From the IMG/VR virus record IMGVR_UViG_2606217104_000010: DNA of 5,484 bases, one strand, 5' to 3'. Numbering within the stretch: the first letter of the stretch is position 1; the number at the start of each line of letters is the position of its first letter. Positions 3,031-3,935 of the stretch are shown here, in pieces. The notes under the pieces are model-generated. The model had not been told where the DNA came from and did not search any database. It saw only the letters and a program-made list of their open reading frames with translations. This DNA is from a virus (taxonomy: Duplodnaviria > Heunggongvirae > Uroviricota > Caudoviricetes). The translations under genes were made by a program, and so were the position numbers.

Positions 3031-3151
3031 TTTTACATGTCATTGATGAGTCTCAATAACCTGCCGCCGAGTAGTTTTTATGCTCTGAATTGTATTTGTG
3101 TAGTAAACATGCTGACTGCAATGTAATAGAGTTTTTTTAGCCTGTAACCTC

Positions 3152-3180
3152 TTGACGGCATTGAATTGCTTTTGTTATGA
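3152..3180 (+). promoter_or_regulatory. Possible sigma70 promoter internal to the insert: -35 TTGACG (3152-3157), 17-bp spacer, -10-like TTATGA (3175-3180).
   Basis: Motif reading only. The -10 is weak. It lies about 40 bp upstream of the preferred start of the membrane-protein ORF. Confidence 0.25.
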
Positions 3181-3218
3181 GTTGTAAGCCAATGTTATCA
3201 TCTTGTATTGGGGTGGTT

Positions 3219-3935
3219 ATGAAGGATGGTGCGCTGCTCAGGAGTTCTTCACTTTTTATTGCCTACATGGGATGCCTTGGATGGGGGAGTGCTTATTTCT
3301 ATGGATGGGGTACTTCTTTTTACTACGGCTTCCCATGGTGGATTGTAGGTGCAGGTGTTGATGATGTTGCCAGAAGTTTATTTTTTGCAGTTATCGTCAT
3401 TGCTATATTTCTTATCGGTTGGGGTATTGGTGTTGTATTCTTTTTCGCAGTGAAAAGAAAACATTCTATGCAAGAGCTAAATGTATTTCGCCTTTATTTT
3501 GCTGTGGAATTATTGTTTGTGCCGGCAATTATTGAGTTTTCTATATTGAGACAGAAGATTCAGGTACCTCTTTTGCTACTGTCAGCAGCGATTGCGCTGG
3601 CGGTTACAATTTCGATAAGATCTTATGGGCGATTTTTATCGGTATCATGCTTCTATGATAAGCCATTTATAAAAAAACATTTTTTTGAGATTGTGATGAT
3701 TGCTTTTGTGGCATATTTCTGGCTTTTTTCATTTCTGACAGGATATTACAAACCACAGTTTAAGAAAGAATATGAAATGATTAATTATAATGATGGTTGG
3801 TATTATGTTCTTGCTCGTTATGATAATTGTCTGGTTTTGTCTACTTCTTTCAATGCAGGTAGTAAAAGGTTTGTCATTTATCAATCAGCACAAGATAAGA
3901 ATCTTCAGGTTGATATTGTAAGGACCAGAATTTAA
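3219..3935 (+). CDS. Hypothetical polytopic inner-membrane protein (about 238 aa; 5-6 predicted transmembrane helices plus a ~60-aa hydrophilic C-terminal domain); AT-rich cargo (moron) gene of unknown function.
   Basis: A long ORF (track 3177-3935) with a markedly lower GC content than the flanking phage genes. The preferred start is the ATG at 3219, preceded by GGGGTGG; ATG 3177 and 3192 are alternatives. Hydrophobic segments include SLFFAVIVIAIFLIGWGIGVVFFFAV, VFRLYFAVELLFVPAIIEF, VPLLLLSAAIALAVTISI and FFEIVMIAFVAYFWLFSFLTGYY. The N-terminal region is rich in Trp/Tyr/Gly (GWGSAYFYGWGTSFYYGFPWW). I do not recognise the family. Confidence 0.7.
   Translation: MKDGALLRSSSLFIAYMGCLGWGSAYFYGWGTSFYYGFPWWIVGAGVDDVARSLFFAVIVIAIFLIGWGIGVVFFFAVKRKHSMQELNVFRLYFAVELLFVPAIIEFSILRQKIQVPLLLLSAAIALAVTISIRSYGRFLSVSCFYDKPFIKKHFFEIVMIAFVAYFWLFSFLTGYYKPQFKKEYEMINYNDGWYYVLARYDNCLVLSTSFNAGSKRFVIYQSAQDKNLQVDIVRTRI

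Follow-up and report, generated by a model that had tools for sequence, protein, structure and literature searches.

In Shiga toxin (Stx) phages the slot between the antiterminator gene Q with its promoter PR' and the downstream nanS-p or lysis genes is occupied by stxAB, and in many of these phages tRNA genes sit there as well. The same slot holds the LT-II and pertussis-like toxins of the type II enterotoxigenic Escherichia coli (ETEC) prophages, where the toxin genes are transcribed late and in a Q-dependent manner. We have analysed a stretch of 5,484 nt from the virus record IMGVR_UViG_2606217104_000010 of IMG/VR (the whole stretch is called the window here, and coordinates are counted from its first letter), in which this position is taken by the gene of a 238-aa membrane protein, the target of this study. 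The target is, with hardly any reservation, an inner-membrane protein of the TfpB/STM1630 family, whose gene is a moron in the cargo slot next to Q.

The Salmonella Typhimurium relative of the target, STM1630 or SL1344_1560, has been mentioned in several studies. Its gene is bound by H-NS and expressed in medium inducing Salmonella pathogenicity island 2 (SPI-2) and in macrophages, its function is listed as unknown, and it has been silenced by a promoter mutation in African ST313 (PMC6785131 S1 Text). Co-regulation with SPI-2 was also described (PMC2639726). The mutant had no growth defect in LB, deletion in 4/74 increased the intramacrophage fold-replication, attenuation in calves and chicks had been reported before for signature-tagged mutants (PMC6785131 S1 Text), and the apparent essentiality of the gene in transposon libraries was attributed to H-NS (PMC3632133; PMC6785131 S1 Text). 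STM1630 resembles the target in its length of 238 aa, in its motifs and in being AT-rich, and it is horizontally acquired; unlike the target it is chromosomal and lies outside prophages, has its own mapped promoter, and is subject to the H-NS binding and SPI-2 co-regulation just mentioned. A more distant relative, TfpB of Moraxella, shares with the target the motifs W..AY.YGWG...YG(F/Y)PWW...ARSL and, at the C-terminus, GY.(K/R)P...YY(V/I)L, as well as the size and the predicted arrangement of transmembrane (TM) helices, whereas in M. bovis and M. lacunata its gene lies inside the invertible tfpQ/tfpI pilin segment, between the pilin genes and Piv. We know of no function assigned to Moraxella tfpB. 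The third system to be compared is phage 434. Its Q is of the Q82 type, lpxR lies upstream, and the terminator in the leader of the cargo gene is intact, in contrast to the lambda-type Q, the lack of lpxR and the degraded terminator of the window.

The target protein is 100% identical over 238 aa to CPT_434_68 of phage 434, annotated as 'putative membrane protein' (UMO75332.1), and 100% identical to the RefSeq protein WP_001302581.1 of O26 and O157 genomes. The precomputed label PF27470.1, named TfpB in the gene tables, is present on all 108 database homologs, including the 100% identical P0001, and the target matches PHROG 1521 (phrog_1521), the category of which is 'unknown function'. BLASTP aligned it over the full length with STM1630 (P0074; 46% identity, E 9e-81) and over 220 aa with the Moraxella 'protein tfpB' P0176 (29% identity, E 1e-23), and a profile built from enterobacterial members alone retrieved the Moraxella-like and Pasteurellaceae proteins with E values of 1e-18 to 1e-40. 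That P0074 is STM1630 follows from its 717-nt gene between steB and sseJ and from the published deletion primer, which encodes its residues NSSMLLAYLGGLGWG. In our Pfam-A scan no family was matched, because the scanned copy was older than PF27470; the NCBIfam scan of the target gave no match either, and the NCBIfam HMM (hidden Markov model) library has no model matching STM1630 itself, the target, or the E. coli fragment that bears the name 'STM1630 family protein'. The RefSeq name of the target is 'hypothetical protein', the rule for the name 'STM1630 family protein' not applying to it, which is a matter of naming and not of homology. In view of the PF27470 label, PHROG 1521, the identity with the phage 434 protein and the 46% identity to STM1630, the statement of the initial annotation that the protein belongs to no recognisable family had to be given up.

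The N-terminal signature of the family is complete in the target (S10-S11, A25-Y26, Y28-G29-W30-G31, G37, P39-W40-W41, A51-R52-S53-L54), and G175, Y195-Y196 and F218 of the C-terminal part are all present; these signature columns are invariant or near-invariant in the alignments A3 and A4, which span 19-100% identity, and Y166-F167 is likewise invariant or nearly so. Hydropathy, loop charges and the AlphaFold model agree in the layout of PF27470, that is about 240 aa with five TM helices and a C-terminal beta domain. Judged by its sequence, the target is a member of the TfpB/STM1630 family (PF27470). The Pfam name is explained by the Moraxella homolog, which one source calls 'protein tfpB'; the PilB-like motor of Acinetobacter and the 'Tfpb' pili share the name by collision and have no relation to the family. 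The name 'TciB', met when the phage 434 match was followed, belongs to the neighbouring DUF3927 gene and to an annotation of phage P1, and only the ORF (open reading frame) at 4021-4179 matched PF13064 / PHROG 1470. Our literature search found no paper on PF27470 or on the annotation of the phage 434 genome. Since the target falls into a curated, though uncharacterised, family and its sequence is that of a gene product of phage 434, a classical lambdoid phage, and of a RefSeq protein encoded by hundreds of genomes, as an object it is already known.

In the window the ORF of 252 aa extends over 3177-3935 on the plus strand, with in-frame ATG codons at 3177, 3192 and 3219. The start at 3192 is used by RefSeq/PGAP and by the phage 434 record (247 aa; 744 nt in phage 434), and the start at 3219 (717 nt) by phage 2B8. 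Because homologs of full length have 237-238 aa and align from the Met at 3219 through their opening motif M-x-D/N-x-S/A-L-L, ATG 3219 is the likely start; the N-terminal extension upstream of it is not conserved in other alleles, and a Shine-Dalgarno-like, G-rich GGGGTGG (3210-3216) precedes it. The ratio of nonsynonymous to synonymous substitution rates (dN/dS) was 0.055 and 0.086 against alleles with 97% and 94% identity (E. albertii, Escherichia sp.), and 0.05-0.07 when the orthologs from three subspecies of Salmonella enterica were compared with one another. As these ratios indicate, the ORF is a functional gene under purifying selection and not a chance ORF.

The gene is AT-rich, as had been noticed initially, with a GC content of 0.36 compared to 0.48 for the window. 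In nearly all lineages of the family that were checked the gene is AT-richer than its surroundings, by 7-16 GC points below the locus (e.g. L021, L024, L020, L042), and even in the already AT-rich Pasteurellaceae it has a GC content of 0.27 versus 0.40 for the locus; the sole locus without this contrast is a short 1.9-kb M. bovis contig (L030, 0.38 versus 0.39). Since this bias is found across lineages, Pasteurellaceae included, low GC is a weak marker of recent transfer; it would partly, and perhaps largely, be a trait of the family and of its amino acid composition, which weakens it as a proof of recent foreign origin.

The description of the product as a polytopic membrane protein of about 238 aa with an aromatic N-terminal region and a soluble C-terminal domain of about 60 aa was borne out by hydropathy, loop charges and structure prediction alike. 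AlphaFold with 43 enterobacterial sequences gave a poor model (pLDDT, the predicted local distance difference test, 56), which was set aside, and with 50 sequences including distant relatives it gave a model with pLDDT 77 and a predicted TM-score (pTM) of 0.70, in which helices cover residues 3-36, 47-79, 89-111, 116-136 and 155-181, and five strands lie within 187-232. An aromatic/Gly-rich N-terminal part is followed by a five-stranded C-terminal domain (187-232). Averaged over the family, the number of Lys and Arg residues is 1.4 at the N-terminus, 0.08 in loop 31-49 (which has 1.4 acidic residues), 2.4 in loop 78-88, 0.6 in loop 110-114 and 3.05 in loop 137-154. Under the positive-inside rule this distribution fits a predicted topology in which five TM helices cross the membrane, the N-terminus is cytoplasmic and the C-terminal beta domain periplasmic.

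Conservation peaks at residues 10-57 and 160-200, which are the parts predicted to face the periplasm, and the two cytoplasmic loops together with TM3-TM4 are the most variable. The aromatic/Gly belt W22...W41 and the following A51-R52-S53-L54, which are almost invariant, are placed at the predicted periplasmic face. Because the invariant and near-invariant residues cluster on this side, the business end of the protein is probably periplasmic. The architecture is kept down to 20-29% identity. Comparison of the AlphaFold model with solved structures and with predicted viral structures gave no fold match, the beta domain having a faint likeness to SH3/Tudor-like barrels and no more, and the sequence-profile search of the PDB returned noise only (E > 1). 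The target matched no holin or lysis family of Pfam or PHROG; in related prophages a separate class II holin, endolysin and spanins are encoded farther downstream.

The genes to the left of the target are those of NinF, NinG, a Ser/Thr phosphatase and then the lambda-type Q; the remaining features are collected in Table 1. From window position 3075 onward the DNA of phage 434 is 99.3% identical (megablast), with unrelated Q genes upstream, and the two share the downstream order of DUF3927 gene, small non-coding region, terminator and nanS-p. We have surveyed the Q-to-nanS-p interval in 80 IMG/VR viral contigs encoding the identical protein. The gene stands directly after Q in 79 of them, 283 nt downstream of a lambda-type Q in 47 and 215 nt downstream of a Q82-type Q in 32; the DUF3927 gene is next in 79 of the 80, followed by nanS-p in 38 and directly by the holin in 34. 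The stx-equivalent slot and the cargo status proposed by the initial annotation were upheld, with the cassette between Q/PR' and nanS-p and behind two types of Q; its picture of a single gene in this interval was not, as the DUF3927 gene and the STnc100-like element of 200 nt are also located there. From the contigs in which the cassette directly follows two types of Q, with a breakpoint at about 3075, it is read that the leader, the gene, the DUF3927 gene, the STnc100-like element and the terminator form, on this comparative evidence, a mobile module docking directly behind Q.

Table 1. Positions of the features described in the text (in the window, unless another locus is named)
Feature	Position	Strand	Remarks
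Target CDS (coding sequence)	3219..3935	+	238-aa protein assigned to the TfpB/STM1630 family, inner membrane; alternative annotated starts 3177, 3192
Q antiterminator gene, lambda-type	2316..2939	+	Pfam PF03589 Antiterm, E 1.2e-57; annotated as 'antitermination protein' in E. coli records of identical sequence
PR'/qut-like element	2982..3010	+	TTGACT 2982-2987, 17-nt spacer TTTTGAATAACTTTGGG, GAAACT 3005-3010; putative function
Degraded tR'-like terminator remnant	3056..3081	+	alignment A5 with phage 434 (L001 3482-3507)
Cassette leader	3075..3218	+	about 99% identity with phage 434 (megablast start 3075; alignment)
DUF3927 ('TciB-like') small membrane protein gene	4021..4179	+	Pfam PF13064, E 3.4e-14; PHROG 1470
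STnc100-like non-coding element	4190..4395	+	Rfam RF02076, 37.7 bits (gathering score 47), full-length model match, E 7.8e-07
nanS-p, 5' part (SASA-family carbohydrate esterase)	4479..5484	+	open from ATG 4479, leaves the window; annotated as SASA esterase in the records of phage 434, phage 2B8 and E. coli
lpxR in other loci	L001 1310-2269; L041 3667-4626; L044-46 ~5972-6919; L047 3863-4823

Two unrelated Q types upstream of the same cassette, the GC content of the gene, the promoter-like site in front of it and the terminator at the end of the cassette all belong to the picture of a moron. The target is moron or lysogenic-conversion cargo, outside lysis and virion assembly, and the absence of the cassette from related phages suggests that it would be dispensable for the phage cycle. 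DUF3927 had to be considered as an obligatory partner, and this was rejected because the DUF3927 gene accompanies the target only in the near-identical lambdoid cassette and is absent beside the Salmonella, Yersinia, ETEC, uropathogenic E. coli (UPEC), Shigella, Pasteurellaceae and Moraxella homologs. The target gene stands by itself. Farther downstream, frameshifts separate copies of the ORF 4236-4430 (annotated in phage 434 as 'putative membrane protein') that are nearly identical in other respects, hence the region of the STnc100-like element is probably a non-coding RNA. No tRNA genes were found in the slot of the window. At the left end (window 1-376, minus strand, and 480-698) lies the terminus of an IS3-family insertion sequence, with 97-98% identity to annotated IS3 transposase/ALIL pseudoknot regions, and ninB next to it is truncated to the profile positions 74-131; the nin region of this prophage is therefore disrupted.

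The PR'/qut-like element resembles the lambda qut string TATTGAATAAAATTGGGTAAA quoted in the GenBank notes of related phages, and the 3' end of Q with the PR' region is 91-92% identical to HK022/P22-like phages, where it is annotated as 'promoter' or 'qut'. The tR'-like terminator of phage 434 has a 9-bp stem followed by U8 (-12.5 kcal/mol, z -3.4), whereas in the window point changes and a 4-nt deletion have left a remnant of -3.5 kcal/mol, no better than shuffled sequences; phage 2B8 is likewise mutated here. The degraded form is found in 43 of the 47 lambda-Q cassettes and the intact one in 26 of the 32 Q82-type cassettes. An AT-rich hairpin at 3083-3131 followed by T7 was considered as a terminator and is unsupported (z -0.7), and the fold of the whole leader was not better than shuffles. 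The terminator scan gave nothing between 2850 and 4365, and the first strong intrinsic terminator after PR', with which the STnc100-like element ends, is the stem 4366-4384 with T8 (-16.8 kcal/mol, z -2.8). Since the tR'-like hairpin is degraded, no recognisable intrinsic terminator stands between PR' and the gene in the window. A promoter-like site is found in the leader, consisting of TTGTTA (3172-3177), an 18-nt spacer and an extended -10-like TG-n-TATCAT (3193-3201); the ATG at 3192-3194 overlaps the TG of this site.

It is plausible that the target is transcribed with the late operon after induction, and in the version of the window transcripts from PR' might enter it even in the absence of Q; a promoter of its own may possibly serve it as well. 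Given its AT-rich sequence, silencing by H-NS is a plausible brake on the gene, by analogy with STM1630. The degraded tR' predicts Q-independent read-through into the cargo genes of the window, of phage 2B8 and of those lambda-Q cassettes that share it.

By blastn the gene was detected in 1,197 of 5,426 complete E. coli genomes, in 679 of them with at least 99% identity, including O157:H7, O26, O103, O121 and O145 strains, and with up to four copies per genome; the DNA of 2900-4300 is 100% identical to many O26, O103 and other enterohaemorrhagic E. coli (EHEC) chromosomes. The cassette is present in just 3 of 50,697 phage records. The family itself is small: an exhaustive profile search among 1.84 billion representative proteins returned only 72 related clusters. 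When one genome per species was scanned, distant members were found in Pasteurellaceae, in one Neisseriaceae genome and in Moraxella bovis, M. lacunata, M. equi and M. oblonga; the range of the family does not go beyond animal-associated Enterobacterales, Pasteurellaceae, Moraxellaceae and Neisseriaceae. Two records carry other names, namely a 3-kb contig labelled 'MAG: Veillonella sp.' (L014, JAIITD010000172.1) that contains the E. coli cassette with 100% protein identity, and a partial enterobacterial-type homolog, 55% identical, labelled 'MAG: Acinetobacter sp.' (P0068); both assignments look like binning contamination and not host range.

For most lineages of the family the setting is not a phage: in animal-associated bacteria they occupy virulence plasmids, pathogenicity islands and islands of the chromosome. 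Three more families of Q proteins have a distant homolog immediately behind them, namely PF06530 (Yersinia enterocolitica), a DUF1133-type protein (E. coli) and PF06323 (a Cronobacter-type prophage). In the last of these (L051 2655-7091, and also L052) the order is LT-IIA/LT-IIB, the TfpB homolog, the pertussis-like S2S3/S1 and then holins, that is, two AB5 toxin operons and a membrane protein share one Q-controlled cargo slot; the target has no sequence or fold relation to the toxins of the slot, and in L051 its homolog co-exists with both operons. On ETEC plasmids the homolog lies about 870 bp from eltAB in divergent orientation. The Shigella invasion plasmid carries a 57% identical homolog, annotated 'hypothetical protein', on 106 records; in pWR501 (135269-135985; L042 7001-7717) it stands between virA on one side and, on the other, spa40 with the spa end of the entry region for type III secretion. 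In E. coli 582 the homolog directly follows the pap operon and a PapX-like regulator, and remnants are seen in other islands of extraintestinal pathogenic E. coli (ExPEC), such as a 79-aa remnant after papX with the RefSeq name 'STM1630 family protein' (L038 4866-5105) and, in ST131, a copy with a frameshift that lies close to a tRNA-Arg gene and the iro cluster (L040 5003-5636).

On chromosomes, the site of the Salmonella homolog between steB and sseJ is occupied syntenically in Citrobacter rodentium. The homolog adjoins cdtABC in Glaesserella and an HlyB/HlyD-type exporter in Mesocricetibacter, and in other Pasteurellaceae it is mostly a lone gene among housekeeping genes. In Moraxella the pilin genes beside it are of type IV (Pilin and N_methyl domains) and Piv is an IS110-like recombinase; this context is limited to the Moraxella loci L030-L033 and L037, and no pilin, N-methylation motif or invertase gene was found in the window. 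The M. lacunata NCTC10359 contigs L032 and L033 represent both orientations of the pilin-invertible segment, tfpB lying 190 nt downstream of a complete pilin gene on the same strand in L032 and convergent to it in L033. The tfpB product is truncated in M. lacunata and M. equi (195-197 aa) and of full length in M. bovis (261 aa). Finally, lpxR is found within 2 kb of a homolog in three arrangements, with LpxR alleles 70-77% identical to each other: in the order lpxR, ylcG, Q, target in phage 434 and O157; convergent and 255 bp apart in the E. coli prophages L044-46, with PmrD adjacent in L045; and divergent and 178 bp apart on the C. rodentium chromosome, where lpxR is split into two ORFs.

Our reading of the function of the target is a tentative one: it may be a lysogenic-conversion factor of the envelope or of host interaction, acting through its conserved periplasmic face. 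The cassette is inserted directly after Q/PR', in the slot that holds stx or other AB5 toxins in other lambdoid phages, and would be transcribed with the late operon on induction; owing to the lack of a recognisable stop for PR' transcripts and to the promoter-like site upstream, the protein would probably be made in the lysogen too, unless H-NS silences the gene. Its periplasm-facing surface might then act on an envelope component or a surface structure, and might benefit the lysogen in the animal host, as has been suggested for the Salmonella ortholog. The animal-associated range, the placement in virulence DNA, the strong conservation, the stand-alone gene and the infection-related regulation and phenotypes of STM1630 are the grounds for the host-interaction part of this proposal. 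Several points weigh against it. The functional hints all come from an ortholog of 46% identity and are modest; STM1630 is not needed for growth, and a hypermotile phenotype met in a deletion screen (PMC4219756) is missing from those that the follow-up study confirmed (PMC4534456). Virulence genes and members of the family may be neighbours only because they share AT-rich islands acquired by horizontal transfer. How the protein works can only be guessed, since neither structure nor sequence comparisons gave a relative of known function. The promoter scan returned 3 sites, compared to 4.9 expected from shuffles, and is weak on its own, and in the lysogen the gene could be kept off by termination through Rho or by silencing through H-NS.

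Among the other explanations, superinfection exclusion or abortive infection had been put forward initially as possible roles: an inner-membrane protein made by the lysogen would block the entry of phage DNA or kill the infected cell through its periplasmic face. A classical moron slot, a small polytopic membrane protein with a predicted periplasmic domain, its probable expression in the lysogen and the up to four copies per genome would all suit such a role, and P22 SieA, lambda RexB, T4 Imm and HK97 gp15, which are small inner-membrane proteins among prophage accessory genes, offer an analogy and only that. The target has no detected sequence, profile or fold similarity to these proteins, and its family is mostly non-phage, the majority of its lineages not being in prophages. 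Neither the target nor DUF3927 gave a match at E<=1 among the 5,027 models of PADLOC-DB, PHROG 1521 is categorised as of unknown function, the chromosomal copies stand among housekeeping and virulence genes and not in defence islands, the family is limited to animal-associated taxa, and purifying selection with strong cross-genus conservation is seen instead of arms-race diversification. The suggestions of exclusion and abortive infection thus gained no support, and we consider them unlikely. An orphan immunity protein against a membrane-targeting bacteriocin or against an effector of contact-dependent or type VI secretion would also be a small polytopic protein on mobile elements of dense host-associated communities, with several paralogs per genome and a variable part such as TM3-TM4, and the neighbouring DUF3927 product has received the label 'resistance to colicin' by annotation transfer. 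No toxin gene is consistently adjacent, though, and the N- and C-terminal parts are unusually conserved across bacterial families, which makes this explanation decidedly improbable. The ORF could finally be a degraded, non-functional remnant, in keeping with the many fragments and frameshifts of the family (P0094, P0095, the ST131 pseudogene, the 79-aa remnant of UPEC and the truncated M. lacunata and M. equi genes); such a state is hardly credible for a copy of full length that is identical in hundreds of genomes, with dN/dS values of 0.05-0.09 and an architecture retained down to 20-29% identity.

Two further explanations start from the neighbours of the homologs. The protein could be an accessory factor in the assembly, export or release of an adjacent toxin or appendage, the copy in the window having survived without its partner. 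The homologs near eltAB, between LT-II and the pertussis-like toxin, by cdtABC and by the HlyB/HlyD-type exporter would be in line with this, as would the position in one orientation downstream of the expressed Moraxella pilin and directly after pap/PapX in E. coli 582. The partners are mutually unrelated, however, and therefore co-location in islands is favoured over a single mechanism; the cassette of the window and of all 80 identical viral contigs contains no toxin or pilus gene, the Pasteurellaceae copies are mostly lone, and the ETEC gene is divergent from eltAB. Such a role is rather unlikely. If the target were instead a partner of LpxR or otherwise took part in remodelling lipopolysaccharide, modulating the modification of lipid A or lipopolysaccharide together with the prophage-borne LpxR (and PmrD), the three arrangements with nearby lpxR would be explained, and the aromatic belt might lie on the periplasmic side of the membrane, at the surface on which lipid-linked substrates are handled. 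Against this, the window has no lpxR, all 47 lambda-Q cassettes lack it within 3.5 kb, it was present at only 6 of the first 52 loci fetched, no catalytic motif or fold match was seen in the target, and LpxR acts in the outer membrane, so the partnership appears improbable. Elements of the last two explanations could be combined with the tentative envelope or host-interaction function: TfpB/STM1630 would then be a hitherto unrecognised class of virulence-locus-associated inner-membrane factors acting, from their periplasmic side, on toxin release, appendages or lipid A (e.g. with LpxR), traded by lambdoid phages with or alongside AB5 toxins in the Q-controlled slot. We regard this extension, too, as unlikely.

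The target belongs to a known family and is an ordinary moron, and nothing suggests a new kind of system. The practical value of the present analysis is a better annotation, with the family assignment, the start at 3219 and the boundaries of the cassette, together with hypotheses that can be tested. Tractable models are available in phage 434 lysogens of K-12, in Salmonella STM1630 and in the chromosomal ortholog of C. rodentium with mouse infection, and a conserved family that accompanies virulence determinants in many pathogens is a reasonable target for focused study. In EHEC prophages the target is one of the most frequent genes carried as cargo in the toxin slot, and the classical phage 434 has it as well; should the family indeed be a class of virulence-locus factors, the 'empty' stx position of many non-Stx EHEC prophages would be occupied by a functional gene of lysogenic conversion.

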